Shown here: positions 681-39,822 of the stretch, piece by piece
Layout of the letters: every line of letters begins with the position of its first letter
Position numbering within the stretch: the first letter of the stretch is position 1
Assembly: GCA_027459725.1 (NCBI GenBank)
Contig: DAIDHK010000008.1
Span: 1 to 52,789 of the forward strand
Source: Candidatus Levyibacteriota bacterium
Lineage (GTDB): Bacteria > Patescibacteriota > Microgenomatia > Levybacterales > UBA12049
Reading direction: 5' to 3'
DNA length: 52,789 nt
Notes under the pieces: model-generated
The model's input: only the letters and a program-made list of their open reading frames with translations
Told to the model about the DNA's origin: nothing
Databases searched by the model: none
Program-made: the position numbers and the translations under genes

Positions 681-1322
681 TTAGTCACTTTGATGATCAT
701 AATAAGAATGTCTCTTACGTGCTTTTCTTTCGGCTTGAAGTGCATTTTGTTCAAATGTTGTAGTAGATATTCTACTGTATTGAATACTTAAGGTGTCAGC
801 TGCTGCAGCTGCCATAATACTTTGAATATTTTGTTCGGTTAAATATGAGTTTGGATCAAAAAACCCCCATTCATCTGGAGTCAAATTATGTGGTCCAAAT
901 TTAACTTTTTCTTCTGGATGCATTTCAAAAATAACGACATGACGCGAATGATCATCTTTTCTTCTATGCACTTCATAATATCCTCTTAAGTAAGTCTTTA
1001 TTCGGTCTGTCCCACCCATTTGTTTGTTTAATGCATATAAAGCAACATTATGACGATCCATATTACGCAAGATTCCACCATAGATTGGTTGATCTCCACG
1101 TGGTATCCCAAACATGACCGGTTGTGACGAATGAGGTAAGTATCTTAAGATAGGATATCCCTGATCTTCATCCACTGCATCTATAAACCGCACTCTCCGC
1201 AGGTCAGTAAATTCTCTATCACGGGAAAATGAGGGTAGAGATTGTGACACAACCAAGCCTCCTTCTGTAGTAGAAGATGTAGGACTGGTTATTCTAGATG
1301 GTGCTAATTCGGTTAATCCCAT
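681..1322 (-). CDS. hypothetical soluble protein, no family recognised; lies directly behind a Leu-codon leader attenuator
   Basis: ORF 681..1370. Its first 16 codons overlap a terminator hairpin, so the ATG at 1322 (MGLTELAPS...), right after the U-tract, is the likely start. Confidence 0.6.
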   Translation of the reverse strand: MGLTELAPSRITSPTSSTTEGGLVVSQSLPSFSRDREFTDLRRVRFIDAVDEDQGYPILRYLPHSSQPVMFGIPRGDQPIYGGILRNMDRHNVALYALNKQMGGTDRIKTYLRGYYEVHRRKDDHSRHVVIFEMHPEEKVKFGPHNLTPDEWGFFDPNSYLTEQNIQSIMAAAAADTLSIQYSRISTTTFEQNALQAERKARKRHSYYDHQSD

Positions 1323-1343
1323 AAAAAAACCCGCTTTCGCGGG
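1323..1343 (-). terminator. intrinsic terminator CCCGC-GAAA-GCGGG-U7 (attenuator terminator, copy 1)
   Basis: Minus strand reads CCCGCGAAAGCGGGTTTTTTT. The hairpin and T-run are identical to the element at 5040..5060. Confidence 0.75.
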
Positions 1344-1379
1344 ATGTGATTTTGTGTTCGTTGCACGCAATCTAACCCG

Positions 1380-1430
1380 CTAAAAACGGATAAGAAGGAG
1401 AGCAACTAATACTTGATTTAGATTTGTCAT
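1380..1430 (-). CDS. 16-codon leader peptide MTNLNQVLVALLLIRF (5 Leu, 2 Val, 1 Ile)
   Basis: ATG at 1430, TAG at 1382-1380. The stop overlaps the GCGGG arm (1380-1376) that can pair with the terminator 5' arm (1343-1339). Confidence 0.6.
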   Translation of the reverse strand: MTNLNQVLVALLLIRF

Positions 1431-1437
1431 AGATAGT

Positions 1438-1467
1438 ATTTTACAAAAAATTAGCATTATTTGTCAA
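1438..1467 (-). promoter_or_regulatory. sigma70-like promoter TTGACA-18-TG-TAAAAT for the Leu-leader transcript
   Basis: Minus strand has TTGACA (1467-1462, overlapping the ridA stop) and an extended -10 TGTAAAAT (1445-1438). The leader ATG lies 7 nt downstream. Confidence 0.5.
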
Positions 1468-1851: not shown

Positions 1852-3096
1852 TTATACCAGATATTGATAAAGCATATCATCCTGTCTCAATATTCTATAT
1901 TGTATACCAATCTTATTCATTCTACTAATTAGTGAATCATAGTCCTTTGCGTTTTGTAATTCAATTCCAACTAAAGCCGGACCCTTTTCCTTGTTCGTTT
2001 TCTTTATGTATTCAAATCTAACAATATCATCTGTTGGTCCTAATGCTTTGTCGACAAACTGTCGTAATTGGCCTGGTTTTTGAGCAAACTCTATAATAAA
2101 GTAATGTTTACGACCAAGGTAGATTAGACTTCTCTCCAAAATTTCAGGATAACGCAGTAAGTCATTGTTTCCACCACTCAAGATACAAACTACCGTTTTA
2201 CCTTTTATGTCGTCCTTTACTTTTTCTAATGTAGAGATACTTAATGCACCTGCAGGTTCGGCTATAATACCATCTTTTTGGTATAGCTCAATCATAGTCG
2301 TACAATCCATTCCTTCAGGGATTGTCACAATCTTTGATAAATATTTTTGACAAATGGCAAAAGTCATATTTCCTACAGTTTTTACGGCCGCACCATCGAC
2401 GAAAGTATCTATTGTTTCCAATGACACTACTGATCCGTTAGAGACTGAAGAATGCATACCTGCTGCACCTTTAGGTTCAGTACCAATGATAATAATCTTG
2501 GTGTTCTTTTGTTTAAGATAACTTGAGACACCAGATGTTAGTCCTCCGCCACCAATTGGGGATATAACCATATCAACTTTACCTGCTGTTTGTTCATAAA
2601 TTTCCTTGCCTACAGTTCCTTGTCCTGCAATAACTAATGGGTCATCGAAGGGATGAACATAGACCATATTGTTTTGTTTGGTGTATATTTTTGACTCTAT
2701 ACTGGCGTCATCAAACGTATCTCCAACCAGTTTGACTTCTACATACTTTTGACCAAACTGTTTGACTTTTTCAATTTTTTGGTTAGGTGTTACACGAGGC
2801 ATAAATATAACACCTTTAATTTTTTGTAAATAACAACTTAGAGCTACACCTTGTGCATGATTTCCTGCACTGGCGCACACAACACCTCTTTTTTGCTCTT
2901 CTGGTGTAAGGGAGGCTATCTTGTTGTATGCTCCCCGTATTTTAAATGAACGTACTTCCTGTAAATCTTCACGTTTTAGGTAAATATTAGCTTTATAAAG
3001 CTTTGAAAGGCGTTTTGAGTATTGCAAGGGTGTTTGCAGTACGATGTTTTGCAGAGTTTTTGCAGCCTCTTCAATTTGTTGTGTAGTTACTTTCAT
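1852..3096 (-). CDS. ilvA: threonine ammonia-lyase (biosynthetic threonine dehydratase) with one C-terminal ACT-like domain
   Basis: 414 aa. Has the PLP-lysine motif SFKIRGAYNK, plus GNHAQG and a GGGGL glycine loop. Overlaps ilvN by 4 nt. Confidence 0.9.
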   Translation of the reverse strand: MKVTTQQIEEAAKTLQNIVLQTPLQYSKRLSKLYKANIYLKREDLQEVRSFKIRGAYNKIASLTPEEQKRGVVCASAGNHAQGVALSCYLQKIKGVIFMPRVTPNQKIEKVKQFGQKYVEVKLVGDTFDDASIESKIYTKQNNMVYVHPFDDPLVIAGQGTVGKEIYEQTAGKVDMVISPIGGGGLTSGVSSYLKQKNTKIIIIGTEPKGAAGMHSSVSNGSVVSLETIDTFVDGAAVKTVGNMTFAICQKYLSKIVTIPEGMDCTTMIELYQKDGIIAEPAGALSISTLEKVKDDIKGKTVVCILSGGNNDLLRYPEILERSLIYLGRKHYFIIEFAQKPGQLRQFVDKALGPTDDIVRFEYIKKTNKEKGPALVGIELQNAKDYDSLISRMNKIGIQYRILRQDDMLYQYLV

Positions 3097-3332
3097 ATTA
3101 ATTGAACTTCCTCAACTTCATATATTTTTTCCATCTGTTTGCAAATTACCTGCAGATTTTTTTTCTCGGCAGAAATCTTTATCGTAAATTTTGCTTTTAG
3201 GTTTTTCTCTAAAGCTTTAACTTCTAAATAATCTACATTTATTTTTCTTCTGACAAACATACCAGCAATTCTATATAACACGCCAGGGGTATTAAGTGAA
3301 ATTATTGATATGGTATGCGTTGTGTTAGTCAT
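3093..3332 (-). CDS. ilvN: acetolactate synthase small (regulatory, ACT-domain) subunit
   Basis: 79 aa. HTISIISLNTPGVLYRIAGMFVRRKINV is ACT-domain-like. It lies immediately downstream of ilvB. Confidence 0.8.
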   Translation of the reverse strand: MTNTTHTISIISLNTPGVLYRIAGMFVRRKINVDYLEVKALEKNLKAKFTIKISAEKKNLQVICKQMEKIYEVEEVQLI

Positions 3333-3336
3333 AGCT

Positions 3337-5028
3337 TTAAGACAGTCTTATTTTATCCACGCTTGCACCAGTTGGTATCATAGGAAATACGTTAGTTTCT
3401 TTTATTACCTTTATTTCAAGTAAATAAGCGTTCTTACTTCTCCAGAGTTGTTGTAATGACTTTTTCAGTTCAGATTTTTTTATTACTTTTTTAGCTGAAA
3501 TATTGTATGCCTTAGCCAGTGTGACAAAATCAGGGCTGTCAATATTAACAAAAGAATATCTTTTTGTAAAAAATAATTCCTGCCATTGTCTTACCATGCC
3601 TAAATAATGATTATTCAGGATTACTACTTTGACTGGAATATTCTCTTGCATAATTGTTCCCAGTTCCTGTAACGTCATTTGGAAGCTACCATCTCCAATT
3701 ATTGCGATGACTTCTTTTTCCGGATGAGCTACTTTGACACCTATGGCGGCTGGTAAGGCAAAACCCATTGTACCTGCTCCTCCGGAGGTGATGAAGTGAT
3801 TTGGATATGTATGTTTATAGTAGCGAGCAGTAACCATCTGATGTTGTCCAACATCTGTTACAATGATGGCTTTGCCATTTGTTAATTCAGCTATTTGGTT
3901 TACTACCTCAGACATTGATAACCTATCATTCTCAGAAGGATGAATATCATGTTCGATAACTTGCTTATATTCTTGACTGTGTAGTTTGTGGAATTCTTCT
4001 TTCCAACTTGTATGGCTTTGTTTTTTGATTAAAGGAATCAGTTTCTCCAGAGCTATTTTAGCATCGGCTTGCAAGGATGTAGCTATCCCTACGTTTTTAT
4101 TAAATTCACTGGCGTCTATGTCGATATGAACTATCGTGGCTTGTCTGGCATAGGTTGAGGTGGTGCTTGTTACCCTGTCGTCAAAACGCATACCCAAAGC
4201 GATTATGACATCGGCTCTATTAGTAAGAACATTCGGGGCGTAATTGCCATGCATACCTAACATACCGGCATAATTAGGATGGTTAACGGGTATTGCAGTT
4301 AATCCATGTAATGTACATGCAACTGGTGCATCCATTTTCTCAACTAGCAACTTTAATTCCTTTTCTGCGTTGGCTATTAGAATTCCATGTCCGGCTAAGA
4401 TTAATGGTCTTTCAGCTTGATTTATTATACCTGCAATTTGTTTTAGTAATTTTTTATCTAGTTTTAAATGCGACTGTTTATCCTTTGTTTTTTTAACTGA
4501 TATATAATCACAGATATTTAGTTGTACATCTTTGGTAATATCAATAACGATTGGTCCGGGTCTACCTGAATTAGCAATTTTAAAAGCTTTATGCATTACT
4601 TCACTGATCTCTTCCCCCTTGGTAATCTGGTAGTTCCATTTTGTGATGGGAGTTGTAATGCCGATAACATCTACTTCCTGAAAAGCATCGCTGCCGACTA
4701 GATGAGATGCAACTTGTCCTGTTATACAGACCAGTGGCACTGAATCAAGCATAGCGTCGGCTATTCCTGTCACTAAGTTTGTTGCCCCGGGTCCTGAAGT
4801 GGCAAAACACACACCTGTTTTACCGCTAGTTCGAGCATACCCTTCAGCAGCATGTGCTGCCCCCTGTTCATGTCTAACCAAAACATGCCTTACTTTGTCT
4901 TTATAATCATACAACGCATCATAGATAGGCATTATCGCTCCTCCTGGATAGCCAAAAATAGTATCCACGTTTTCTGCAATTAATGACTCCATGACGGCGT
5001 TGGCGCCAGTTATTTTTTTACCTCTCAT
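3337..5028 (-). CDS. ilvB: acetolactate synthase large (catalytic, ThDP-dependent) subunit
   Basis: Has GYPGGAI, GPGATN and GDGSFQM..NN (ThDP motif). The ORF extends to 5082, but codons 1-18 cover the leader terminator, so ATG 5028 (MRGKKITGANAV...) is the preferred start. Confidence 0.9.
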   Translation of the reverse strand: MRGKKITGANAVMESLIAENVDTIFGYPGGAIMPIYDALYDYKDKVRHVLVRHEQGAAHAAEGYARTSGKTGVCFATSGPGATNLVTGIADAMLDSVPLVCITGQVASHLVGSDAFQEVDVIGITTPITKWNYQITKGEEISEVMHKAFKIANSGRPGPIVIDITKDVQLNICDYISVKKTKDKQSHLKLDKKLLKQIAGIINQAERPLILAGHGILIANAEKELKLLVEKMDAPVACTLHGLTAIPVNHPNYAGMLGMHGNYAPNVLTNRADVIIALGMRFDDRVTSTTSTYARQATIVHIDIDASEFNKNVGIATSLQADAKIALEKLIPLIKKQSHTSWKEEFHKLHSQEYKQVIEHDIHPSENDRLSMSEVVNQIAELTNGKAIIVTDVGQHQMVTARYYKHTYPNHFITSGGAGTMGFALPAAIGVKVAHPEKEVIAIIGDGSFQMTLQELGTIMQENIPVKVVILNNHYLGMVRQWQELFFTKRYSFVNIDSPDFVTLAKAYNISAKKVIKKSELKKSLQQLWRSKNAYLLEIKVIKETNVFPMIPTGASVDKIRLS

Positions 5029-5039
5029 ATTTTTCTCAT

Positions 5040-5060
5040 AAAAAAACCCGCTTTCGCGGG
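5040..5060 (-). terminator. intrinsic terminator CCCGC-GAAA-GCGGG-U7 (attenuator terminator, copy 2, ilv leader)
   Basis: Same hairpin and T-run as at 1323..1343. It lies 12 nt upstream of the ilvB ATG. Confidence 0.75.
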
Positions 5061-5096
5061 GTATTTGTTTGTTTTGCTCCACACAAATACGCCGCT

Positions 5097-5144
5097 TTAA
5101 CGGGTAATAATGAGAGCAACAATAATGTTTTGATTTCTTAACAT
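5097..5144 (-). CDS. 15-codon ilv leader peptide MLRNQNIIVALIITR (4 Ile, 1 Val, 2 Leu, 1 Thr)
   Basis: These are the last 15 codons of ORF 5097..5315. ATG at 5144, TAA at 5099-5097, followed by antiterminator and terminator alternatives. Confidence 0.65.
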   Translation of the reverse strand: MLRNQNIIVALIITR

Positions 5145-5150
5145 GAAAAT

Positions 5151-5180
5151 ATTATAGACTTTCTCAACACAGAAAAGCAA
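5151..5180 (-). promoter_or_regulatory. sigma70-like promoter TTGCTT-18-TATAAT for the ilv leader
   Basis: Minus strand has TTGCTT (5180-5175) and TATAAT (5156-5151). The leader-peptide ATG starts 6 nt after the -10. Confidence 0.5.
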
Positions 5181-5190
5181 GCATCTGTTT

Positions 5191-5871
5191 TTAGCCTGCT
5201 TGTGTAGCCACATTGCGGTCATGGTGCAATAAGAAGGTGGTACCCTCTTTCTTAGCTCTTTGCCAGAAACCATTTTTCTTCTTGCCTTTAATTGCTGCCT
5301 GCCACGCCCCTGCATCTTCTACTTTCATGCGTGCTTGTCGAATAACAGTCAGTACCCACTGGAAAAAACTAACATGATATTTACCTGGATTCTTAGGAGC
5401 CTGAGACATACTAACTTGACTGAATTCCACCTGCAGCATGCTAGAAGAAGAGACCAGTTTTTGTAATTCCATCTGAATTTCTTGAATTGATTGCCTGAGC
5501 TCTGCTTTTTCTTTTGCATGCATCCGTGATTCAACAGTAGCAATTTCACGGTTATAGTCCATCCCCGGTGCGACTTCTTGTTTGTGGGTGGTTTCTTTAA
5601 CTATCTGCTCATTCTGGCCAAACAAAAAGTCACCCCAAGAACTGTCTTTTTTAACAGTCACTTTGCTTTTGCCCAGATGCAATTCTTGTCCTGGTTTTAA
5701 ATCACCTGATTGTGCTTGGGAGGTGAACTCTCCTGAGCCTATAATCTGATCTAAGAAGCCCTTGCTCCACTGTTTAGTTTCTTCGCTTAAGCCGCGTAAT
5801 ATCGAATCGGAAGCTCTTTCTTCCAATTCTAGTGGATTTTTTACCTGATTAGTATGTTTTTTTGAAGCCAT
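5191..5871 (-). CDS. hypothetical protein
   Basis: 226-aa ORF with a coiled-coil-like middle and a basic C-terminus. No family recognised with confidence. Confidence 0.6.
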   Translation of the reverse strand: MASKKHTNQVKNPLELEERASDSILRGLSEETKQWSKGFLDQIIGSGEFTSQAQSGDLKPGQELHLGKSKVTVKKDSSWGDFLFGQNEQIVKETTHKQEVAPGMDYNREIATVESRMHAKEKAELRQSIQEIQMELQKLVSSSSMLQVEFSQVSMSQAPKNPGKYHVSFFQWVLTVIRQARMKVEDAGAWQAAIKGKKKNGFWQRAKKEGTTFLLHHDRNVATQAG

Positions 5872-8407: not shown

Positions 8408-10009
8408 TTAGATGTAAATTGCTGATAAAATCTGATGCGGATGTGGTGAAATGGTATACACGCAGTGTTCAGGACGCTGTGCCGTAAGGCATGGAGGTTC
8501 AAGTCCTCTCATCCGCACACCTGTTGACTTGGAAGGCGCAATGCTAGCGATTATCTCAAAGGGACGACCTAATCGTTGGTTTGAAAAGTCCTTTCCGTCA
8601 AAGGTTACTCCATCTGGGAAAATTAGCCTCTGATATTTTACCCTTGCTTCAGGAAGGGCGTCATACCAAACTAAATGAGGGGTTTGAATAAATGCGTATG
8701 CATAATTGAGCAGGGCGTCAATATCCAGCTCCTCTGAATGTAATTCTGTTAAACCAATTTTTGCCAGTGTTATCTTTTGTTCGATCTCTTTCAATTGTTT
8801 CTCAAGAAGATTGTCTGGAATAATTCCCTTGCTACCTTTTTGCACAAGCCACTCTTGTTGCTGTTGTAATTCCTTAATATCATCCATTTTTCTCAGGTAA
8901 TCACCATTTATTTCTTGCAACCTCTCTTGATACCTTACACGAAAAACCTTATCAAAAAAGTCAATAAATTTTTGTTTGCCTCGATGGTGACGAAGATACT
9001 CAAAAAAATAATCCTCAAAGTCTTTTTTGGAGATCGTTTTTGAATACATTTTACAGCCTTTGTTATGGCAATAATACTTGGCATACATTCCACCATTTCC
9101 TTTTGTCCAACCTGCTGTCAGAGGTTCTCTACAAAACTTGCACATTGCAAATCTTCTGAGTGTAAAATCAGGATTATCATAAAGTCGTTTATTTATTTTG
9201 TGTCCTGTATTATGAAGAATAGCCTGACATTTTTCCCATAAAGCAATTGTGATAAGTGGCTTTTGTTTTCCCTGAATAATCTTCCCTTCCTGTGTCATGA
9301 GTAATCCTGCATAAAAACGGTTATTGAGAATTTTGTTGATGTATTGTTTGGAAAATTTTATTGTAAAACCTCTGTAATCTTTGAGTTTTCTTTTTCCCAT
9401 CAAAGAACCAAGTTGCGTTTGTGTATATGCACCAGTGCTAAAAAACGTAAAAATGTCAATTACCGATTGGTAACAATTTTCATCCCATTCGTGAGGAGAA
9501 AGTTTTGTGCCAAGCACTTTTACTCTTTTGTATCCTGTGGGAGGTTGCCATGGCCACAAGCCTTCTTCCACACGTCTCCAAATGGCTATTTTTATTCTTT
9601 CTTTACGAACTGCATTGTCATACTCATTTACAGCTGCTAGGACGCCTTCTACAAGTCTTCCTGATGGTGTCTCATCTATTCTCTCAGTTGCAGAACGTAA
9701 GATGATTTGTAGGCGAAGCAATTGTCCTCTGAGCCAATGGTGTTGTTCTTGTGAGCGAGCAAATCTATCCAATTTGAATACAACCAGCACATCAAACTTT
9801 CCCTCGTTACGTTTAGCAAAGTCCAGGAGTTCTGCTACCCGTTTCTCGTTCGTTTCTTTTGCTGAAACAGCTTCATTTTTCATGATATCAACAACTTCAT
9901 ACCCTTCTGTTTCACAGTAGGAACGACAAATCTTTTCCTGTGTATCAAGACTTGTGTTGTCAATTTGTTTATCACTACTGATGCGTAAATAAATAATTGC
10001 CTTTTTCAT
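8408..10009 (-). CDS. large serine recombinase (resolvase/invertase N-domain, recombinase domain, zinc-ribbon)
   Basis: AIIYLRISSDKQ (catalytic Ser), VVFKLDRFARS and the Cys cluster CKFC...CHNKGC. The last ~35 codons are the antisense of tRNA-Leu(CAG). Confidence 0.85.
   Translation of the reverse strand: MKKAIIYLRISSDKQIDNTSLDTQEKICRSYCETEGYEVVDIMKNEAVSAKETNEKRVAELLDFAKRNEGKFDVLVVFKLDRFARSQEQHHWLRGQLLRLQIILRSATERIDETPSGRLVEGVLAAVNEYDNAVRKERIKIAIWRRVEEGLWPWQPPTGYKRVKVLGTKLSPHEWDENCYQSVIDIFTFFSTGAYTQTQLGSLMGKRKLKDYRGFTIKFSKQYINKILNNRFYAGLLMTQEGKIIQGKQKPLITIALWEKCQAILHNTGHKINKRLYDNPDFTLRRFAMCKFCREPLTAGWTKGNGGMYAKYYCHNKGCKMYSKTISKKDFEDYFFEYLRHHRGKQKFIDFFDKVFRVRYQERLQEINGDYLRKMDDIKELQQQQEWLVQKGSKGIIPDNLLEKQLKEIEQKITLAKIGLTELHSEELDIDALLNYAYAFIQTPHLVWYDALPEARVKYQRLIFPDGVTFDGKDFSNQRLGRPFEIIASIAPSKSTGVRMRGLEPPCLTAQRPEHCVYTISPHPHQILSAIYI
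8437..8517 (+). tRNA. tRNA-Leu (anticodon CAG), type II
   Basis: Hand-folded: GCGGATG acceptor, anticodon loop TTCAGGA, variable arm TGCCGTAAGGCAT, T-arm GGAGG-TTCAAGT-CCTCT. No encoded CCA. Confidence 0.9.
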
Positions 10010-12192: not shown

Positions 12193-12373
12193 TAACAATT
12201 TATTTGCCTACAACCCTCTGGTAATGCAGGGGGCATGGCATAAAGACCTGTTAGACCCAGTAAGCTCTTGTGGAGCGTCTAACAGGCTGTATATCGAAAG
12301 GTATGCAGGCGGAGCAATCCGTCGCCACAGGAGCTTTTTGTATGCTCTTGCTGGCACGAAAGGCGGTGAGAAC
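12193..12373 (+). promoter_or_regulatory. long GC-enriched structured 5' leader (candidate cis-regulatory RNA) of 12374..12859
   Basis: Putative promoter TTCAAA-17-TATAAT (-10 at 12181-12186). 10-bp stem CCTGTTAGAC (12247-12256) / GTCTAACAGG (12277-12286) with nested GCTC/GAGC. Second hairpin GGCG (12308-12311) / CGCC (12323-12326). SD-like GGCGGTGA precedes the ATG. Confidence 0.45.
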
Positions 12374-12859
12374 ATGAAAATAACAAAAACAGCAGAAGAA
12401 CAAAACAAAGATATAGTCAAAGGCGGTATTCTTTTTGGCGTTATATTTATTCTTGTTTCACTATGGCTATTTGCATCCCATCATTCATTCTTTGGAGAAA
12501 TGTTTTTAGGAGCAGGAATTCTCTTACCATTACTGATGCTTTCTCGTTATTCAACAGCAGCTGCTAAAACAAGTGGTGTGGTTCTTGGAATTGGCATAGG
12601 GGGCATTCTAGTTGTTCTCGGCATCATTTGTTTCCAAATTCCAGTTATTGGTTGGATACTCGGAATACTTTTTATTCTTTTTGGTATTGTTACTCCATTT
12701 GGTGGATTAAAACTCAATGCCACCAGTTTCCAGAGAATACAAGGAGATTGTCCAAGATGCGGAAATAAACTGATAGCACATAAAACAGATAAAGCGCTTA
12801 CCTGTAAGATATGTCAGAGGAGAGTGTTGGTAACTGAGAAGGGATTTGAATTGGCATAA
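12374..12859 (+). CDS. membrane protein (about 4 TM) with C-terminal zinc-ribbon CPRCG...CKIC
   Basis: ORF 12224..12859 trimmed to MKITKTAEEQ..., which follows an SD-like sequence. The upstream part of the ORF covers the structured leader. Confidence 0.6.
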   Translation: MKITKTAEEQNKDIVKGGILFGVIFILVSLWLFASHHSFFGEMFLGAGILLPLLMLSRYSTAAAKTSGVVLGIGIGGILVVLGIICFQIPVIGWILGILFILFGIVTPFGGLKLNATSFQRIQGDCPRCGNKLIAHKTDKALTCKICQRRVLVTEKGFELA

Positions 12860-19442: not shown

Positions 19443-19841
19443 ATGTGTGGATTGAGTTTTAGAGATTTAATACCAGATGTTTATTTTGCTGATTTTCTCA
19501 GAGGACATTTAGATGGCGATGGTTATAAGACCACATATTGGGATAAAAGATGGAAAAATAGTTATATGCTTTATATAGGTTTTGTATCTGCTAGTAAGAT
19601 TCATTTAGAATGGATTAAAGGAAAAATAAGTGCACTATTTCAAGTTGAAGGTAAAATTAAATATGCAGGTAAGTCGGTATATCAATTAGTCTACGCTAAA
19701 TATGCCTCCATTAAGCTATTACAAATACTCTACTATTCAAGTGGTAATGTATGTCTGTCGCGTAAAAGGTTTAAAATTGAGTGCAGTTTCGCTATAATAT
19801 CCTTGAGCCGGGATGCTGAAATGGTAGACAGGCATGCTTGA
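19443..19841 (+). pseudogene. LAGLIDADG homing-endonuclease remnant (single-motif, truncated)
   Basis: FADFLRGHLDGDGY matches a LAGLIDADG motif. Only ~130 aa from the internal Met, and the ORF tail runs into tRNA-Leu(GAG). Confidence 0.5.
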
Positions 19842-21409
19842 GGTGCATGTGCCAGCAATGGTGTGGAGGTTCGAGTCCTCTTCCCGGCACTAGAGGGGAC
19901 TGTTTGTCCCGAATAGTACTGAATAGCTTGATATATCGGGCTAATTGAATGGTTCAATGTGCCATTATAGTCCCAAGCCAATCCTTCAGGGAACATTGAA
20001 CCTAAGAGCACTTTAGCCTGGGTTAGATTAGATCTTTTGTATGCTTCCCACAAGTCGGCAAGAATAGTTTTCATAAAAGAAGTTACTTCATCTATATTGT
20101 ATTTATCGAAAGTTGTGTCATCTTTTGCTATCTGTGCCTTTGTCATTTCACTTTCAATCATGGTATTCTGCTCCTTAAATATTTCATCAGAATAGATTCC
20201 AGCAAGGTTTTTCTGTACAAGCTGTTTTCTTATGGCTTGAAGTCTAGCAATTTCATCGTCTGCGCTATTTTTAATGTTTAATAACCTCGATTGTCTAGCA
20301 TAATAGGCTTCATATAGAGCGTTCATAAACAGTTTGAGACATTCTTCCTTAGGCGTGGTTTCTTTTAGTACACGTTTTAGTGCATCTTCGAGATCAATTA
20401 CCTTGATGGATTTACTATTGCATGGAGCACCACAGCGATAGTAAGCATATTTGCCACCATGGCCTTTAGTCATTCCCCCAGTTAGTCCTTTGCCACATTT
20501 TGCGCATTTTATAACTCTTCGCAGAGGCAAGATTGGATTATCATGATTTCTGTGAGCTAAGGCGACTTGATTAACATTTCTTCCATCTAAGATCGCTTGG
20601 ACTTTATAATATTGTTGCTCCGTAATCATGGGAACAAGTTGTCCCCTAACTTCCTGCTTATAGGTTTTCGAAGAAAGTATTCCCATATAGAATTTATTTC
20701 TAAAGAGTTTGTTCACTCTCTGAAGGCATAGAGTATATTCTTTTGTGCCTTGCCTTGCCCTTAATCCCCACTCATTCATAATATCTGCCATTTCACGAAG
20801 GCTTTTTGTTCCCGTTGCCATTAAGTCCCATGCTTCTTTCATTTTGTTCCATGTTTTGGGATCTTTAACTGCATACCCTGCTTCTACTTTGTACCCAAGA
20901 GGTGCTTGTCCTGTAACGATCATTCCTGCCATAAACCTGGCTTTTAGACCGTTTCTGGCTCTCTCGCTGCGAATATCATTATCAAGCTGAGCAAATCCAG
21001 CAAGTATTGTTTCAACAAGCTTTTCTGTAGGCGAATCCCCTGTAGGTTCTGTAGCGGATATTATATTAACGCCATTTTCAACCAACTTTTTTCGTATAGC
21101 TAAATAGTCAGCGGTTATCCTTGAAATTCTATCAAGCCTGTATACAAATACTGCTTGAAATTTATTTTTGTTCTTTCGGGAATACTCCAAAAGATTAATA
21201 AGTACTGGCCTTCCGGTAATAGTTTTAGCGGATCGTCCCTCTTCTCGGAAAACTTCAATTACCTCAAATCCTTTCTTTTCAGCTTCCCTCCTACAAATTT
21301 CTTCCTGAGTGTCGAGTGAAAAATTATCAACCTGCTCTTCTGTAGAGACACGAAGGTATAAAACTGCTTTTTGACCATCATCATATATAGTTGGTTTTTG
21401 TAGTTTCAT
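19733..21409 (-). CDS. large serine recombinase (paralog of 8408..10009)
   Basis: AVLYLRVSTEEQ (catalytic Ser), VYRLDRISR and the Cys cluster CAKCGK...YYRCGAPC. The C-terminal ~50 codons are antisense to tRNA-Leu(GAG) and its upstream flank. Confidence 0.85.
   Translation of the reverse strand: MKLQKPTIYDDGQKAVLYLRVSTEEQVDNFSLDTQEEICRREAEKKGFEVIEVFREEGRSAKTITGRPVLINLLEYSRKNKNKFQAVFVYRLDRISRITADYLAIRKKLVENGVNIISATEPTGDSPTEKLVETILAGFAQLDNDIRSERARNGLKARFMAGMIVTGQAPLGYKVEAGYAVKDPKTWNKMKEAWDLMATGTKSLREMADIMNEWGLRARQGTKEYTLCLQRVNKLFRNKFYMGILSSKTYKQEVRGQLVPMITEQQYYKVQAILDGRNVNQVALAHRNHDNPILPLRRVIKCAKCGKGLTGGMTKGHGGKYAYYRCGAPCNSKSIKVIDLEDALKRVLKETTPKEECLKLFMNALYEAYYARQSRLLNIKNSADDEIARLQAIRKQLVQKNLAGIYSDEIFKEQNTMIESEMTKAQIAKDDTTFDKYNIDEVTSFMKTILADLWEAYKRSNLTQAKVLLGSMFPEGLAWDYNGTLNHSISPIYQAIQYYSGQTVPSSAGKRTRTSTPLLAHAPQACLSTISASRLKDIIAKLHSILNLLRDRHTLPLE
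19807..19889 (+). tRNA. tRNA-Leu (anticodon GAG), type II
   Basis: Hand-folded: GCCGGGA acceptor, anticodon stem CATGC/GCATG, loop TTGAGGT, long variable arm, T-arm GGAGG-TTCGAGT-CCTCT. Confidence 0.9.
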
Positions 21410-21884: not shown

Positions 21885-24575
21885 GTGATATACTCATTGC
21901 GTTCCTGCCCTAATAATATGGATGTTCAGAAGTATAGGGCAGATTATTTGATAGGAAATCTCTTCCACAACTTTTCTTTTACAACAGTACTATTTTCTCT
22001 TTCTCCTCTGTTTTCTCATGTGCTGGCTATTTTTATTGCTTTAGCTGCTATCACCATCATTATTGTCATTTTACGAGTTGTTGTTTCCTCTATTCTTTAT
22101 CTTCTTGAGAAGTCAGTGTTTTTGGAGATAACTCCACCTGCCTTTACACAAAAGACAGCATACACAACACAGCAGTTATTCTCAGTTCTTCATACAATTG
22201 GTAGTCAGAGAACTGTCTTTGAACGATTAGTTGGGAAAAAGGTTATATTCTCCTTTGAAATTGTTTCCACAAGAGAAGAAGGTATCCGATATATAGTCAG
22301 AACAACGTTAGATCAGGTACAGACGATAGAGCAAATATTGTTATCCTACCTTCCTCAGGTAAAAGTAAAACAAATTGACGAATATTTGCCCTCTCAAATA
22401 AAGGAAAAGTCTAAAGTCATTGAATTTCGGTTAGCAAGACATTACGCATATCCTCTGGCAAAACAAGATTTACTTAACGAGCATGATCCAGTGGCATATA
22501 TAACAGGTATGATGACAAAACTAAAACCAGGTGAACTGATTGCGCTACAAATTGTTGTTTCTCCCGTCAAGCCAAAGGAAGTAGCCATGATTTCTCAAAA
22601 AATATTACACAATGAACATGTCCTTCGTTTTCTGGATAGCCCGCGTTTTCCTTGGTATACACAACCAATTATTATGATTTTTAGTCTTTTTGGTAAAGTT
22701 TTCCAATTTGTTGGGTGGATTATTAATGACTTTTCTTTAACCAGAGAGGATCGTTTAGCACAACGGCAGATGACATATTTTAACCAAATGACCGCAAGTC
22801 ATATAAAACCTGCAAGAACGTTAAGTACATTCGAACAAGAAGCTGTAACTGCAATACAAGCAAAAATAGCACAACCGCTATTTGAAACAACTATTCGTGT
22901 ACTAATTTTGGTTAAGAATAAAAGCGAACAAGCTGAAAGAGTACGAGGAATAACAGCGTCTTTTTCTCCATTTACCGTACCAGGTTATCAGTCGCTACGG
23001 AAACTTATCAATATTTCGTTTCTAAAGACTCTGAGAGAGTTTCCTTTTCAGAGACGACAGTTATCTTTTCTATCAAATAGAACTGATTCTCTTCTTTCTT
23101 CTTCTGAACTCGCAGACTTATATCATTTTCCCTTTATGCAGGTAACTCAGACAGAAAATATTGTGAAAGTATATAGTAAAGAATTGCCTGCTCCTCTTTC
23201 ACTAAAAAAGGATACAAAAAACTTGGATATTATTTTTGCCAAAAACACCTATGGAGAGCAAGACACAATGATTGGATTGACTCAAGAAGAACGAAGACGA
23301 CATATGTATATCATTGGAGCAACTGGAACTGGAAAATCAACTCTGATTCTTTCAATGGTAAATCAAGATTTACAGCATGGAAAAGGTATTGGAGTTATTG
23401 ATCCTCATGGAGAATTAGCAGAAACAATTTTAAATTTAATTCCAGAAGATAGAAAAGATGATCTTGTCTATGTGAATCCTGATGATTTGCAATATCCAGT
23501 GGGTATTAATCTTATGGAATTAACGCCTGGTCTTTCAGAAGAAGATAGTCTTCGGGAAAAAGAATTTATTGCAGAAAGTGTTATTTCTCTTTTTAGAAAA
23601 GTCTTTGCCAGTGATATGAAAGGAAATCCGCATAGAATTGAATATATCCTTCGTAACACAATACATACTGCCTTTACTGTAGAAAATCCTACCCTTTTTA
23701 CCATATTTGATCTTTTGAATAATCCGGTGTTTCAGAAAAAGGTTGTCGCAAAGTTACGGGATGAAAACTTAAAGAATTTCTGGAAATATGAATTCGGAAA
23801 AGCTGGAGATTATCAGAAAGTAAAAATGGTCTCACCTGTCACTGCAAGAATTGGACGATTCCTTTTCTCGCCAAGCGCTAAAAGAATTCTTGAGCAAACA
23901 AAATCAACGATTAATTTTGACGAAATCTTAAATGGGAAAATTCTTCTATGCAATCTGGCGAAAGGAAAGCTAGGAGAAGACACCTCTCAAGTATTGGGAA
24001 TTATGATCTTAAACAAGCTCCAATTGGCTGCATTAAAACGCGCGAGAATAGAAGCTTCTGAAAGAAAAGATTTTTATCTATATGTAGATGAATTTCAACA
24101 CTTTGCTACAAGAAGCTTTGTAGAAATGCTTTCAGAGTCCAGAAAATATAAATTAAATCTGACCATTGCAGAACAATCAACCTCTCAACAAGACGATAGA
24201 GATTTAGTAAATATAATTCTGGCTAATGTGGGAACTGTTGCATGTTTTAAAACCGCAAACCCACAAGATGAAAAACTAATGCTTCCTCAATTTGAGCCGT
24301 ACGTTGTTCAAGGAGAAATTTATAACCTTCCTGCGTTTCATTTCTATATGAAAATTTCTGCACTTAATCCTGAAGAACCATTTTCAGGAGAAACAATGCT
24401 TATAAATGGAGAAAAAGACAAAGATAAGATTCAAAAATTTATTGAAGCCTCTCGTACTAACTATGCACACAAATATGAAACAAAAGCTCAAGTAGTTGAT
24501 GATGAAAAAACAAACGAAGAAGAAAATACTCCTATACCTTCTGTCCCAAAAGGGAAATTTCCTAAAAGAAAATAA
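21885..24575 (+). CDS. type IV coupling protein-like ATPase (VirD4/TraD/TcpA-like, FtsK/HerA superfamily) with N-terminal TM region
   Basis: Walker A GATGTGKST and Walker B-like LYVDEFQHF. N-terminal hydrophobic segments. The ORF starts at GTG 21885; an alternative ATG is at 21918. Confidence 0.7.
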   Translation: MIYSLRSCPNNMDVQKYRADYLIGNLFHNFSFTTVLFSLSPLFSHVLAIFIALAAITIIIVILRVVVSSILYLLEKSVFLEITPPAFTQKTAYTTQQLFSVLHTIGSQRTVFERLVGKKVIFSFEIVSTREEGIRYIVRTTLDQVQTIEQILLSYLPQVKVKQIDEYLPSQIKEKSKVIEFRLARHYAYPLAKQDLLNEHDPVAYITGMMTKLKPGELIALQIVVSPVKPKEVAMISQKILHNEHVLRFLDSPRFPWYTQPIIMIFSLFGKVFQFVGWIINDFSLTREDRLAQRQMTYFNQMTASHIKPARTLSTFEQEAVTAIQAKIAQPLFETTIRVLILVKNKSEQAERVRGITASFSPFTVPGYQSLRKLINISFLKTLREFPFQRRQLSFLSNRTDSLLSSSELADLYHFPFMQVTQTENIVKVYSKELPAPLSLKKDTKNLDIIFAKNTYGEQDTMIGLTQEERRRHMYIIGATGTGKSTLILSMVNQDLQHGKGIGVIDPHGELAETILNLIPEDRKDDLVYVNPDDLQYPVGINLMELTPGLSEEDSLREKEFIAESVISLFRKVFASDMKGNPHRIEYILRNTIHTAFTVENPTLFTIFDLLNNPVFQKKVVAKLRDENLKNFWKYEFGKAGDYQKVKMVSPVTARIGRFLFSPSAKRILEQTKSTINFDEILNGKILLCNLAKGKLGEDTSQVLGIMILNKLQLAALKRARIEASERKDFYLYVDEFQHFATRSFVEMLSESRKYKLNLTIAEQSTSQQDDRDLVNIILANVGTVACFKTANPQDEKLMLPQFEPYVVQGEIYNLPAFHFYMKISALNPEEPFSGETMLINGEKDKDKIQKFIEASRTNYAHKYETKAQVVDDEKTNEEENTPIPSVPKGKFPKRK

Positions 24576-30073: not shown

Positions 30074-31141
30074 TCACCCCCCCAATATTAATTGGAATTG
30101 CCCTCGATACATTCCCATACTACACATAAATGGTAATACTCCCGGTTGAGATGGTGCGGTAAAGGTAAGCGTGTCTGATTGACCAGTAGGGACAACTTTT
30201 TGCACCCCAAGACTTGGAATAGTAAATGATTGTGTGCAGCCAACTCCACCAGTATTTTTTAAGTGAAGTGTTACCGTAGACCCAGCTTTAATTGCAAGGT
30301 TATTTGGATTGTAGCCGGATGCAGTTATTTCTATCGTTGGATTGTTTACTACTGTTCCTGCAGCTTGAGCAGTACCGTCACCAATGCCGTTATTCCCGCA
30401 CCAGCTCACTGTACACCAAAAACCCCTTGCTAAACTTCCTACAGTACTTCCAGCATTTTCAAGCGTTATATTGCTTCCCAACAATGCTGAAGCATTATTT
30501 GCATTAAAGATTGCTAAAAGAATAATGGCAATTGCTGCCAATTTCATAAAACCTTCCTGAAACATATCTCCCAGTTTTGTTGCAAAGTAACCTAAAATAA
30601 AAAACACAGGAGAAGTCCCAAGCACAAAAGCAAATAAAATTGCTGCCCCATACAGAGGTTTGCCTGATGCAACAGCGAGTGCCATCATGGCTTGGGTTGT
30701 CCCACAAGGAATAAAGATAGTAAATGCACCCAAAAGGGCGGGAGCAAAGACTGCCTGACTCTTTGATTGTTTACGAACCAGTCTGGTCAAAAATTTTGGC
30801 GGCTGGATAACAAAGTAGCGAAAGATTGGGTGAACATTAAGTATGTTTAATGCAGTCCCAACCATAAAAACTGCAACAGCAATTTGTAAAATTGCCCGGA
30901 ACTCTATGGATAAAGAGAAAAAAGAGCCAAGCATGCCAAGCAGGGCTCCAAGAGCAGTATAGGCAATAAGTTTTGCAGCAAGGAAAGCAAGGATTGGAAG
31001 CGCATTGCCTCCTTTTGCTTTATCCTCCAATTTTTGTTCTTCACGTTGTGCAAGTGTTGCAGCCAACAACCCCCCTTGTACTGCCATACAAGTAAGACCA
31101 CCTGTAATAAGTCCTGTTAAAAAAATAGCCCACAAATTCAT
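30074..31141 (-). CDS. polytopic permease (SO_0444/DsbD-like metal efflux type) fused to a C-terminal cupredoxin-like domain
   Basis: N-terminal LITGGLTCMAVQGGLLA. The C-terminal ~100 aa have a beta-rich cupredoxin-like pattern ending in FMCSMGMYRG. Confidence 0.6.
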   Translation of the reverse strand: MNLWAIFLTGLITGGLTCMAVQGGLLAATLAQREEQKLEDKAKGGNALPILAFLAAKLIAYTALGALLGMLGSFFSLSIEFRAILQIAVAVFMVGTALNILNVHPIFRYFVIQPPKFLTRLVRKQSKSQAVFAPALLGAFTIFIPCGTTQAMMALAVASGKPLYGAAILFAFVLGTSPVFFILGYFATKLGDMFQEGFMKLAAIAIILLAIFNANNASALLGSNITLENAGSTVGSLARGFWCTVSWCGNNGIGDGTAQAAGTVVNNPTIEITASGYNPNNLAIKAGSTVTLHLKNTGGVGCTQSFTIPSLGVQKVVPTGQSDTLTFTAPSQPGVLPFMCSMGMYRGQFQLILGG

Positions 31142-37596: not shown

Positions 37597-39822
37597 TTAT
37601 ACCGTAATTAAGCTTTTCTCCGCTCTATTCAATAAAACAGCATTAGTCGCGACAATAATTGATGAAAGACTCATCAAAAGCGCTGCCCATTCTGGACGAA
37701 GCTCAATACCAAATCTTGGATACAGAACTCCTGCGGCAATAGGAATTGCAAGCAGATTATAAATTGACGCCCAGAAAAGGTTTTGTTTCATTTTTCTAAC
37801 TGTTGCTTTGGAAAGCCTGATTGCTCGCAAGATATCTGCTGGGTCTGATTTCATCAGTACCACTTTTGCAGTTTCTATGGCAACATCTGTCCCTGCCCCA
37901 ATTGCAATACCGATATTTGCTTGAGCTAAAGCTGGCGCATCGTTGACCCCATCACCTACCATCGCAACAAATTTCTCCTCATCTTGCAGTTGTTTCACAT
38001 ATTTTGCTTTATCTTGGGGCATAACTTCTGCAAAAATTCGCTTTATACCAAGCTGTTTGCCAATTGCTTCTGCCGTTTGCTTGTTATCACCTGTAATCAT
38101 CGCAACCTCAAGCCCTAACTCCTGCATACGCTCAATAGCAATCTTTGCAGTTGGTTTGATTGGGTCTTGGGCTGCTGCAACACCAGCAACTTTACCATTA
38201 ATTGCCAAAATCATTAGTGTTTTTCCTTCACTAAGCAGCCTATCAATGTCTTTTTGAAGAGGCATAAGATCAACTTTTCTCTCCTGCATAAGCTTTTGTG
38301 TTCCAACCAAAATGCGTTTTCCCTCAACTGTTGCCTCAACTCCTAAGCCTGCAAGGGATTTAAATTCTGTTACTTTTTCTGGGACTATGGTCTTTCTTCT
38401 TGTTGCTTCTTCCATGACTGCTTTACTTAATGGGTGTCCTGATTTTGCTTCTGCTGCACTATCAAATCGAATTACATCGTCTTCTGAGAAGCCTTTCATT
38501 GCTACTACATCTGTTATTTTTGGTTTCCCTTCAGTAAGCGTCCCTGTTTTATCCAGTACAATTGCTTGGATTTTAGAAACCTGCTCAAGAGTTGGCGCAT
38601 CCTTAATAAGTATGTTATGTTTTGCCCCAAGACCAGTTCCAACAGCTACAGCGGTAGGCGTAGCAAGTCCCAGCGCATCAGGACATGCAATAACAACTGC
38701 TGAGATAGCAAAGGTCAGAGCAAAAAGCAGTGGTTGCCCTAAAACTAAAAACCAGACTAGAAACGTCAAAAGTCCGCCACCTACTGCAACAATCACTAAA
38801 TATTTTGCAAACCTGTCTGCAATTTTTTGCCCTGGAGCCTTGGAGTTCTGTGCAGTTTCAACCATTTTGACAATTTGGGCAAGCGCCGTATTTCCTCCTA
38901 TTTTTGTTGCCTTAAACGTAACTGATCCAGATTGGTTGATTGATCCGCCAATGACTTTGTCTCCTTTTCCCTTGGCAACAGGAATAGATTCACCAGTAAC
39001 AAGCGATTCATCTATTGCCGTATCTCCCTCGATAATTTCTCCATCCACCGGGACTTTATCTCCAGGTTTCAGAAGGACAATATCATTAAGTTTAACTTCT
39101 GAGGTCGGAACAAGTTGCTCTTTTCCATTTCGTATTACCCTGGCTTGGGGTGGAACAAGATTAAACAATGCTTGCAGAGCATCAGTTGTTCCTCTGCGTG
39201 ATTTCATTTCCATCCAGTGTCCAAAAAGTACAAACGTAATCAGCATAGCTGCTGCCTCATAGTACGAGTCCTGACTACCAAGAAAGGTAAGCACTACACT
39301 AAATCCATAGGCGGCAGTAATTCCAACTGCAATCAAAACTGCCATATTTAGTGTTTTCTGCTTAAGTGCTTGATAGGTAGAATACAGAAAAATCCATCCA
39401 GCATAAAAGTAAACGGGTGTTGTAAGAATAAGAAGCATCCATGGAACAGGTATTGGCGTAGGAAGCGTTATGCGAAAAATTTTTTCTCCAAGGGGTGAGT
39501 AAAGAATAATTGGAATTGTTAAAATTAAGGAAAAGAAGAACTTATTCCGAATATCTTCTTCCATAAGCTTTGCCATTTCTCGACCTGCAAGCCCTGTATG
39601 CTCCATGCCCATAGACATGGACATACTCATTTTGAATTTTTCCCAAAATGACATTTCAGATACAGGCTTCATCACGTGCTCTCCATGTTTCATGGTGCTG
39701 TGATCCATTTCCTCATGGTTCATTTTCATTTCAGTCTCAATAAACCTCATCCCGCACTTTGGGCAGGTGCCAGGTTTTTCTTGTTGTACCTCAGAATGCA
39801 TAGGACAGGTATACATTTTCAT
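37597..39822 (-). CDS. P1B-type heavy-metal ATPase with N-terminal YTCPMH..CPKCGM domain, Met/His-rich tract and unusual CPD transmembrane motif
   Basis: DKTGTLT, GDGVNDAP and ITGDN. The TM motif reads VIACPDALGLATP. Confidence 0.85.
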   Translation of the reverse strand: MKMYTCPMHSEVQQEKPGTCPKCGMRFIETEMKMNHEEMDHSTMKHGEHVMKPVSEMSFWEKFKMSMSMSMGMEHTGLAGREMAKLMEEDIRNKFFFSLILTIPIILYSPLGEKIFRITLPTPIPVPWMLLILTTPVYFYAGWIFLYSTYQALKQKTLNMAVLIAVGITAAYGFSVVLTFLGSQDSYYEAAAMLITFVLFGHWMEMKSRRGTTDALQALFNLVPPQARVIRNGKEQLVPTSEVKLNDIVLLKPGDKVPVDGEIIEGDTAIDESLVTGESIPVAKGKGDKVIGGSINQSGSVTFKATKIGGNTALAQIVKMVETAQNSKAPGQKIADRFAKYLVIVAVGGGLLTFLVWFLVLGQPLLFALTFAISAVVIACPDALGLATPTAVAVGTGLGAKHNILIKDAPTLEQVSKIQAIVLDKTGTLTEGKPKITDVVAMKGFSEDDVIRFDSAAEAKSGHPLSKAVMEEATRRKTIVPEKVTEFKSLAGLGVEATVEGKRILVGTQKLMQERKVDLMPLQKDIDRLLSEGKTLMILAINGKVAGVAAAQDPIKPTAKIAIERMQELGLEVAMITGDNKQTAEAIGKQLGIKRIFAEVMPQDKAKYVKQLQDEEKFVAMVGDGVNDAPALAQANIGIAIGAGTDVAIETAKVVLMKSDPADILRAIRLSKATVRKMKQNLFWASIYNLLAIPIAAGVLYPRFGIELRPEWAALLMSLSSIIVATNAVLLNRAEKSLITV

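Follow-up and report, generated by a model that had tools for sequence, protein, structure and literature searches.

How is branched-chain amino acid synthesis controlled in a bacterial lineage with almost no known gene regulation? This question is raised by a 52,789-nt stretch of DNA from a Candidatus Levyibacteriota bacterium (GenBank assembly GCA_027459725.1, contig DAIDHK010000008.1, positions 1 to 52,789; this whole stretch is hereafter called the window). On its minus strand, positions 5180-5040 hold a promoter, a leader open reading frame (ORF), a G-rich box and a terminator, directly before the genes ilvB-ilvN-ilvA-ridA. We consider it very likely that this arrangement is a ribosome-mediated leader-peptide attenuator of the classical three-hairpin type, which would control the four genes and respond chiefly to isoleucine and, to a lesser degree, to valine and leucine. 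A preliminary description of the region had already proposed the classical attenuation logic, and the comparative and thermodynamic tests presented here support it, adding a hairpin (1:2) that had been missed. The locus thus offers a concrete and testable regulatory element in this lineage.

Composition of the ilvB leader

The promoter consists of a -35 box TTGCTT (5175-5180, minus strand) and a -10 box TATAAT (5151-5156), separated by 18 nt and with 6 nt (ATTTTC) between the -10 box and the leader ATG, just where the preliminary description had placed them. The TTG of the -35 box and a spacing of 16-18 nt to the -10 box are kept in eight of the loci compared below. Since the -35 box fits TTGACA at only three of its six positions, the promoter was absent from the output of a consensus promoter scan.

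The leader ORF (5097-5144, minus strand; ATG at 5144-5142, TAA at 5099-5097) has 15 sense codons, encodes MLRNQNIIVALIITR and lacks a Shine-Dalgarno sequence. Four Ile, one Val and two Leu are found among its codons. The stretch singled out as regulatory by the masking simulation and by conservation (Ile7, Ile8, Val9, Ala10, Leu11, Ile12 and Ile13; 5106-5126) holds four Ile, one Val and one Leu, so that what had been called an Ile run is indeed Ile-rich but made up of mixed branched-chain codons.

Regarding the RNA elements, a single A separates the stop codon from box 2, the 5' arm of the predicted antiterminator (GCGGCGUAUUUGU, 5083-5095), and box 3 is its 3' arm (ACAAAUACCCCGC, 5056-5068). 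The two arms pair at 12 of 13 positions, with a single mismatch at C5091/C5060, and are separated by a 14-nt loop with the sequence GAGCAAA. The last 5 nt of box 3 are also the 5' arm of the intrinsic terminator CCCGC-GAAA-GCGGG-U7 (box 3/box 4; 5040-5060), which was found by a terminator scan as well; both the antiterminator pairing and the terminator had been located exactly in the preliminary description. The third pairing is the 1:2 anti-antiterminator hairpin (5074-5119), obtained from an RNAalifold consensus, in which UUGCUC.CAU...UACCCG faces CGG.GUA...GUG..GAGCAA across a UUAAAG loop that includes the stop codon. The leader measures about 105 nt from its start to the U-tract and about 117 nt from ATG to ATG. 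The fold of a 121-nt region gave -37.2 kcal/mol (z = -4.6), and none of 200 shuffles was as stable.

Conservation of the leader upstream of ilv genes

We compared nine loci: the window, L081, L082, L107, L083, L108, L109 (a Saccharimonadales metagenome-assembled genome, MAG), L110 and L106 (a Patescibacteria MAG). The IlvB proteins of the other loci are 60-77% identical to that of the window (P0002-P0005, P0009, P0042), the ilvB match being only partial in L106 and L107. The check proposed in the preliminary description, conservation in related ilvB upstream regions, came out in its favour, with the short ORF and both pairings kept and covarying. All nine leader ORFs start with ATG, have 14-16 codons of which 5-9 are Ile, Val or Leu, and show no Shine-Dalgarno sequence. 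The peptides are MIRNQNVIIALIITR in L081, MLCKQTIIALIITR in both L082 and L107, MHLTISQSILVLIILR in L083, MNFRNSNIVSIIVTP in L108, MNNKFAQLIVILITH in L109, MSKNLLLIALVILTR in L110 and MKTNNIIIVNILINQP in L106, each followed by a stop codon. Thus the frame, the length and the Ile/Val/Leu run of the window ORF recur in the eight other loci. Substitutions within the run are confined to Ile, Val and Leu, insertions and deletions comprise whole codons, and the N-terminal residues are variable. The mix of branched-chain codons shifts among the relatives, for instance toward Leu in L110. A G-rich box lies 0-1 nt past the leader stop in all nine loci, which also have the antiterminator and the terminator, with the U-run kept at each terminator.

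The final two sense codons vary in the amino acids that they encode (TR, LR, TP, TH and QP) and yet stay C-rich and complementary to box 2, a pattern that indicates selection at the RNA level, as box 1. Besides, the leader is found before operons of different composition (ilvBN-ilvA-ridA, ilvBNC-ilvD, ilvBNC-ilvA and ilvBNC), and in L106 it precedes the aminotransferase gene of an aminotransferase-ilvB operon. The genes upstream of the leader also differ, with genes other than the DUF5660 gene of the window in L083, L108, L109, L110 and L106. These differences on both sides argue that the element belongs to ilv and not to a neighbouring gene. The DUF5660 protein beside the leader has named homologs in the 'Patescibacteria group' and in 'Candidatus Saccharimonadales' only. 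Elsewhere the window codes for a trigger factor that lacks the PPIase domain, a PF18895 pilin and further type IV secretion proteins, and together these features point to a bacterium of the Patescibacteria-like (CPR) type, probably ultra-small.

When only window-clade sequences were used to build a covariance model, it recovered L108 and L106 (36 bits each) and L109 (31 bits); L110 reached only 21 bits, the level of a plain terminator. Close IlvB relatives are very few (P0002, 77%; P0003, 72%; P0004, 66%), and then, at about 60-64%, comes a wider shell in which some proteins bear the labels Levybacteria, Daviesbacteria, Saccharimonadales and Patescibacteria; no protein identical to the window IlvB (from its ATG start) or IlvA is on record. 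A contig search with IlvB gave, among the matches listed, identities of 47-60%, mostly from Bacteroidota, and when the 350 nt immediately before ilvB in these loci were scanned heuristically, no homologous leader turned up. A search with the N-terminal 150 aa of IlvB yielded mostly frameshifted ilvB genes of other lineages. In L104 and L105, ilvB lies within an operon and has no leader directly upstream. Finally, a metagenome scan with a degenerate pattern of the ORF end plus box 2 gave 20 matches, all of them chance matches to unrelated, mostly GC-rich sequence.

Pairing potential of the leader RNA

The terminator hairpin (3:4) has a predicted energy of -9.1 kcal/mol in the window and of -10.3 to -13.5 kcal/mol elsewhere, and every relative keeps it, changes in one arm being matched in the other. 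The 2:3 hairpin, taken from the base after the stop codon to the end of the terminator 5' arm, reaches -16.7 kcal/mol in the window (z about -4.4 to -4.6). It was found in nine of nine loci, with energies of -13.5 to -17.6 kcal/mol and z = -2.8 to -4.9, and in every locus it is more stable than the terminator hairpin, so the comparison of energies that the preliminary description had suggested turned out in favour of the antiterminator. The inner helices of 2:3 differ by lineage, with GUAUUUGU:ACAAAUAC in the window and UUUAUUG:CAAUAAA, GGAUGGU:ACCAUUC or GGUUGA:UCAACC elsewhere.

The RNAalifold consensus of five window-clade sequences comprises a 16-pair 1:2 hairpin and the terminator. The Ala-Leu-Ile-Ile-Thr-Arg codons form the 5' strand of the 1:2 hairpin, the stop codon lies in its loop, and one compensatory pair (C-G to U-A) combines a synonymous CUC to CUU change with the matching G to A. 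As a snapshot in the window, the hairpin has -18.1 kcal/mol (z = -3.2). Its z values ranged from -2.6 to -3.2 in five of eight loci (the window, L081, L082, L108 and L110) and the hairpin is weak in L083, L107 and L109. In L110, UUGCGC:GUGCAA replaces the UUGCUC:GAGCAA of the window (U-A to G-U), and the hairpin extends to 24 contiguous pairs over codons 4-15. The invariance of GAGCAA is explained by its pairing with UUGCUC of the leader ORF.

Boxes 2, 3 and 4 also change in concert. Box 3 reads CCCGCC in L108-L110 and ACCGCC in L106, with box 2 and box 4 both changed from G to U (GGCGGU), and the joint change of box 2 and box 4 with box 3 fits a model in which both pair with box 3. We then compared cognate with non-cognate pairings by an alignment-free procedure, the MAFFT alignment of the eight leaders not being in structural register. 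The observed sum was reached by 22 of 5040 permutations for 1:2, by 32 of 5040 for 2:3 and by 144 of 5040 for 3:4.

Dependence of the terminator on ribosome position in silico

We simulated the ribosome by masking, at each codon, a 28-nt footprint that extends 15 nt upstream and 12 nt downstream of the first base in the A-site, and took P(terminator) as the equilibrium probability of the terminator stem in a transcript ending at box 4. In the window, P(terminator) was 0.90 with the A-site at codons 3-4, fell to 0.00 from Asn6 to Ala10, rose to 0.18 at Leu11 and to 0.69 at Ile12 and Ile13, and reached 0.99 at Thr14, Arg15 and the stop codon. This last value agrees with the earlier idea that a ribosome at the stop codon hides the antiterminator arm. 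With the ribosome at the early positions, box 4 pairs with ACCCGUU at the exposed end of the ORF in a long hairpin that encloses 2:3, and it is this pairing that makes the equilibrium switch complete.

The same profile, with a trough of about 0.00 on the first branched-chain cluster and values of 0.9-0.99 from the penultimate codon to the stop, was found in the window, L081, L082, L107, L083 and L106. The cleanest switch is that of L106, with 0.97 in the ribosome-free state, 0.00-0.04 from Val9 to Ile13 and 0.97 from Asn14 to the stop; in L108 the minimum was 0.24. The ribosome-free value was 0.83-0.99 in seven of the nine loci. As a control, we shuffled all sequence upstream of the terminator while preserving dinucleotides: the amplitude of the switch dropped to 0.03 +/- 0.12, and none of 100 shuffles reached the observed 0.97-0.99. 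The dependence on ribosome position is thus seen directly in silico, as the sequence elements, their conservation and their pairing potentials are seen in the alignments and folds.

Proposed mechanism

From these results we infer a model whose predicted parts are the site at which transcription starts, that the ORF is translated, that termination takes place and that amino acids elicit the response. Transcription would start on the first base of the leader AUG or about 1 nt away at most, and a ribosome would load on the leaderless 5' end and trail the RNA polymerase. With ample charged tRNA-Ile, tRNA-Val and tRNA-Leu, the ribosome would reach the UAA, its footprint would hide box 2 (5095-5083), and the CCCGC/GCGGG-U7 terminator of box 3 and box 4 could then form and stop transcription at 5046-5040, directly before ilvB. 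If the ribosome stalled on Ile7-Ile8-Val9 or on Leu11-Ile12, box 2 would be left free; the stall would also disrupt 1:2, because the 5' strand of 1:2 consists of the regulatory codons. Free box 2 would pair with box 3 as soon as the latter was made (-16.7 kcal/mol), the 5' arm of the terminator would be sequestered and the polymerase would enter ilvB. In an early stall (codons 7-10), the ACCCGUU at the end of the ORF might in addition pair with box 4, in a long hairpin over 2:3. Without translation, the 1:2 hairpin (5119-5074) would form first and lock box 2, so that termination would be the default outcome.

Several observations weigh against this model. The -35 box is weak, and there is no terminator between the upstream DUF5660 gene and the leader promoter; therefore, read-through transcripts are possible, in which the leader AUG would be internal and devoid of a Shine-Dalgarno sequence. 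The antiterminator and the terminator had been called mutually exclusive, and this holds for the outer GCGG:CCGC of the window antiterminator, the only 4 bp that compete with the terminator, but not for the inner 8 bp (GUAUUUGU:ACAAAUAC), which can coexist with it. Similarly, the claim that a stall on the Ile codons frees the antiterminator stands for Ile7 to Ala10 but less so for Ile12/Ile13, where P(terminator) at equilibrium is still 0.69 in the window and as high as 0.96 among the relatives; as the inner 8 bp coexist with the terminator, antitermination at Ile12/13 must depend on 2:3 forming first. The ribosome-free P(terminator) of the window is only 0.52, that of L083 only 0.05, and equilibrium switching is weak in L109 and L110, with minima of 0.65 and 0.83. 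The comparison comprises only about 7 independent sequences, and position-wise covariation rests on few events. Moreover, -10 boxes located 5-8 nt before gene starts are not significantly enriched in the window (2 of 41 starts versus 0.83 expected), which bears on the leaderless start.

Start of ilvB and alternative explanations

The genes under the presumed control of the leader were confirmed by profile matches in the order previously described, all on the minus strand: ilvB, the large subunit of acetolactate synthase (3337-5028, 563 aa; TIGR00118, 712.7 bits); ilvN, a short small subunit with an ACT domain only (3093-3332, 79 aa; profile match); ilvA, a threonine ammonia-lyase (1852-3096, 414 aa; NF006390, 614 bits); and ridA, an enamine/imine deaminase (1464-1844, 126 aa; TIGR00004, 163 bits). 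This is the operon of the window clade, without ilvC, ilvD or ilvE, and the operons of L108-L110 include ilvC and/or ilvD. A mechanical ORF call started ilvB at GTG 5082, a position inside the attenuator; we rejected it and used ATG 5028.

The surroundings of this ATG invite the alternative that best survives the evidence, namely that control is translational, in place of or besides transcriptional, with ilvB output set chiefly when its translation is initiated: the terminator hairpin would block initiation at ilvB or at a mini-ORF before it and would be remodelled by translation of the leader. In six of nine loci an ATG lies 0 nt from the U-tract. It is the ilvB ATG itself in L082, L107, L083 and L110, and in the window it opens a 4-codon mini-ORF, MRKI (5025-5039), whose stop codon overlaps the ilvB start (AUGA). 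L081 has an equivalent mini-ORF, MTKI (about 3990-4004), also overlapping the ilvB start; it seems that a short insertion in the window and L081 turned the ancestral start into that of a coupled mini-ORF upstream of ilvB. The lack of a clear Shine-Dalgarno sequence before ilvB would also suit occlusion of its start. Still, the hairpin has the canonical form of an intrinsic terminator, a GC-rich stem with U7 behind it, the U-run is kept in every locus, and in L108 and L109 the terminator lies 100-140 nt from ilvB, too far to occlude its start. A translational layer could only add to termination, not replace it, and we regard this alternative as unlikely.

One could also argue that the leader ORF is fortuitous and untranslated. 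The hairpin would then either terminate the DUF5660 gene or act as a partial, constitutive terminator, and the ilvB promoter would be unregulated. The weak -35 box missed by the consensus scan would fit this idea, as would the number of terminator-like sites in a 4-kb scan, which showed no enrichment (5 versus 3.0 +/- 2.1 expected). Against it, the promoter sits between the DUF5660 stop and the leader ORF, the element follows ilvB or the ilv operon whatever the upstream gene (L083, L108, L109, L110 and L106), and the frame, the length and the Ile/Val/Leu run are maintained in nine loci through whole-codon insertions and deletions. The conservation and covariation of the antiterminator and 1:2 hairpins and the position-dependent switch, seen in 0 of 100 shuffles, make this explanation very improbable. 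Least probable of all is that a trans-acting factor decides (an uncharged tRNA in T-box fashion, a metabolite bound by a riboswitch or an RNA-binding protein) and that the ORF is incidental: some single-stranded stretches are conserved, such as GAGCAAA, which the window clade has in its antiterminator loop, but GAGCAA is accounted for by its pairing with UUGCUC and covaries in L110, no T-box, riboswitch or other cis-regulatory Rfam model matched even at E <= 10, and the approximately 105 nt from start to U-tract are too short for a T-box. Accordingly, the T-box, riboswitch and plain upstream-gene terminator readings were rejected on the Rfam, length, conservation and shuffle evidence.

Probable leaderless translation of the leader peptide

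Returning to the attenuator, its leader peptide had been thought to be translated from a leaderless transcript. In four of the five window-clade loci the -10 box lies 6 nt from the ATG, and in the fifth 7 nt; with this spacing, transcription probably starts at or next to the leader AUG in this clade. In the paralogous modules described below the distance between the -10 box and the ATG is 7, 7, 7 and 0 or 6 nt. In L108-L110, by contrast, it is 12-13 nt, which implies an untranslated leader of about 5-6 nt without a Shine-Dalgarno sequence. Strict leaderlessness, judged by a spacing of 6-7 nt, would thus be limited to the window clade, where leaderless initiation is plausible and has good local support. 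Within the window, a Shine-Dalgarno-like motif lies 5-18 nt before the candidate start of only about 16 of 56 ORFs.

A second module after ridA

The covariance model found sites just after ridA in three genomes. Together with a reading of the sequence, it identified a putative second attenuator in the window (1323-1467, minus strand), which is kept in L081 (7561-7707), L082 (3775-3916) and L083 (about 3825-3990). Its promoter reads TTGACA (1467-1462), 18 nt and TAAAAT (1443-1438), with 7 nt to an ATG at 1430. The leader ORF (1430-1380, minus strand) encodes the Val/Leu-rich peptide MTNLNQVLVALLLIRF, ends at a stop codon and is followed by a G-box, and the terminator CCCGC-GAAA-GCGGG-U7 (1343-1323) is identical to the first and abuts the next ATG (1322). 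Upon alignment, the two modules share the core GTTGCTCTC.TT.TTA.CCG, and the ATT ATT (Ile-Ile) of the ilvB leader corresponds to CTT CTT (Leu-Leu) in the second, which makes the second module, from its sequence, a paralog of the ilvB leader. In the masking simulation, P(terminator) was 0.96 without a ribosome, 0.00 from Gln6 to Ala10 and 0.99 at the end. The occurrence of the same device twice with different regulatory codons strengthens the conclusion drawn for the ilvB leader. The stop codon of ridA, TGA (1466-1464), is embedded in the -35 box TTGACA of the second module. There is no separate terminator after ridA, and the terminator of the second module may also end the ilv operon.

The ATG that abuts the U-tract of the second module opens an orphan gene of 213 aa (681-1322, minus strand); a mechanical ORF call from TTG 1370 is probably wrong, as it runs into the attenuator. 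The protein is 79% identical to its copy in L081 (L081 7708-8352). It had no match in Pfam, NCBIfam or PDB, and a search of 1.84 billion representatives gave only members of its own cluster. A single-sequence AlphaFold model gave a pLDDT of 33 and is unusable. Other genes occupy its position behind the second attenuator in L082 and L083. The Leu/Val leader suggests that the orphan gene is tied to branched-chain amino acids.

Comparison with known attenuators

No Rfam family matched the ilvB leader of the window at gathering thresholds. At E <= 10, the terminator drove sub-threshold matches to Trp_leader (RF00513, 21.3 bits against 41), Phe_leader (RF01859, 19.3 against 55) and Leu_leader (RF00512, 12 against 50). 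The T-box model had no match at E <= 10 in 4900-5300, and the leader is not a T-box, as it lacks a match to the model and has about 105 nt where a leader of about 200 nt is required.

In the enterobacterial attenuators trpL, hisL, leuL, ilvL (ilvGMEDA) and ivbL (ilvBN), a leader peptide with cognate codons is combined with alternative 1:2, 2:3 and 3:4 pairings, and the position of the ribosome decides on the terminator. The window element shares this logic of a leader ORF and three pairings, but it is far more compact and probably leaderless; the enterobacterial peptides are preceded by a Shine-Dalgarno sequence and belong to longer leaders. The principle of attenuation is also summarised in PMC1183508.

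The closest characterised analogue is the leaderless IlvL attenuator of Corynebacterium glutamicum ilvBNC. IlvL has 15 residues with mixed Ile/Val/Leu codons (MTIIRLVVVTARRLP), lies upstream of ilvB, is transcribed from a start one nt from its start codon and has been given a three-hairpin model, within a regulatory region of 292 nt (PMC11857589). The window element resembles it in its 15-residue leader, its mixed branched-chain codons, its three hairpins and its place before ilvB. Unlike it, the window element belongs to a phylum other than Actinomycetota, has no detectable sequence relation to it, measures about 117 nt instead of 292 nt, has a U-tract that abuts a start codon and a box 2 that starts 0-2 nt past the stop, and is known from sequence alone. 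Leader-peptide attenuators with branched-chain codons also control ilv in Firmicutes, such as the ilv-leu operons of Staphylococcus aureus and Listeria monocytogenes (PMC5794164 and PMC5864092). These act in concert with CodY and/or T-box elements in long leaders and have no evident sequence similarity to the window.

Leaders of this general type were also found in the genomes retrieved with IlvB, whose closest proteins include, among the matches listed, those of Bacteroidota. The heads of Bacteroidota ilvE-ilvD-ilvB operons (an order read in L003) carry a leader ORF with a run of Ile and Val, a GC-rich hairpin and a U-tract on the operon strand, in L003 (312-404), L008 (200-307), L010 (6-105), L019 (155-207), L020 (174-272), L033 (982-1085), L038 (80-177), L046 (823-949) and L052 (97-193). 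Examples are MKQAIIIPIIIIIPME, MYQLLSVIIIVIIIPLRL and MFSNSTNIVNIISTIIIVVVIIIPVPNGGGVLL, each ending at a stop codon, and they are absent from Rfam. These leaders lie about 2.7 kb upstream of ilvB, before ilvE, and differ from that of the window by their longer peptides (16-33 aa) and longer homopolymeric Ile/Val runs. The leader of L010 has ATTATTACCCG (…VIITR…) in common with the window leader. With the window-clade covariance model they score 15-25 bits, the level of a terminator only, and they are not demonstrably homologous to the window family. Lopatovskaya et al. (2010), cited in PMC4833913, reportedly predicted classical attenuation outside Proteobacteria by comparative genomics. Besides, unrelated candidate leaders with terminators lie directly before ilvB in L070 (about 2750-2900), L076 (about 2755-2925) and L079 (about 2775-2930), which are MAGs of Sandaracinaceae (myxobacterial), Caldilineaceae (Chloroflexi) and a deltaproteobacterium, respectively; an example, again closed by a stop codon, is MDLFSNISTVIVLLVLVELLAVIISDQKPMPVGEAP. 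According to these results, leader-peptide attenuation of ilv operons is widespread, and the window family is a compact, lineage-specific version of it.

The mechanism is therefore a textbook one, and what is new is the element: a family absent from Rfam, to which it could be added, with nine loci so far in Patescibacteria-like genomes. A search of one full-text library found no paper that joins leader peptide, attenuation and Patescibacteria. The proposed attenuator implies close coupling of translation to transcription and a self-regulated synthesis of branched-chain amino acids. The paralogous pair tuned to Ile and to Leu/Val would be a natural experiment in the re-programming of specificity by codon swaps, and the second module flags the orphan gene as probably linked to the supply of Leu and Val. 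It is possible, though as a whole doubtful, that the window holds the founding example of a lineage-specific family of ultra-compact leaderless attenuators in Patescibacteria (candidate phyla radiation, CPR) and their relatives, with at least two paralogous modules per genome, a specificity re-tuned by swaps of the first codon base (ATT ATT to CTT CTT), a Leu/Val copy that gates an orphan with a branched-chain role, and a U-tract edge that couples transcription and translation. If this were true, bacteria with reduced genomes would tightly couple the two processes and run branched-chain synthesis by their own cis-acting sensors.

Other features of the window

A strong match to the LOOT RNA (RF03000) was found at 12205-12323 on the plus strand, with 78.7 bits against a gathering threshold of 46.4, and it overlaps the start of the ORF at 12224-12859. 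Two large serine recombinase genes on the minus strand overlap tRNA-Leu genes of the plus strand with their 3' ends: 8408-10009 with tRNA-Leu(cag) at 8437-8518, and 19733-21409 with tRNA-Leu(gag) at 19807-19890. Near the recombinases are genes for type IV secretion, at 21885-24575 and at 45257-49445, the latter with a PF18895 pilin and a TraG-like ATPase among their products. Integrated elements, conjugative or mobile, that target tRNA-Leu are suggested by this arrangement. Two genes for heavy-metal P-type ATPases lie close to each other (37597-39822 and 41221-43443, both on the minus strand; E1-E2 ATPase with HMA or HMBD domains), and a DsbD_2/cupredoxin fusion protein is encoded at 30074-31141.

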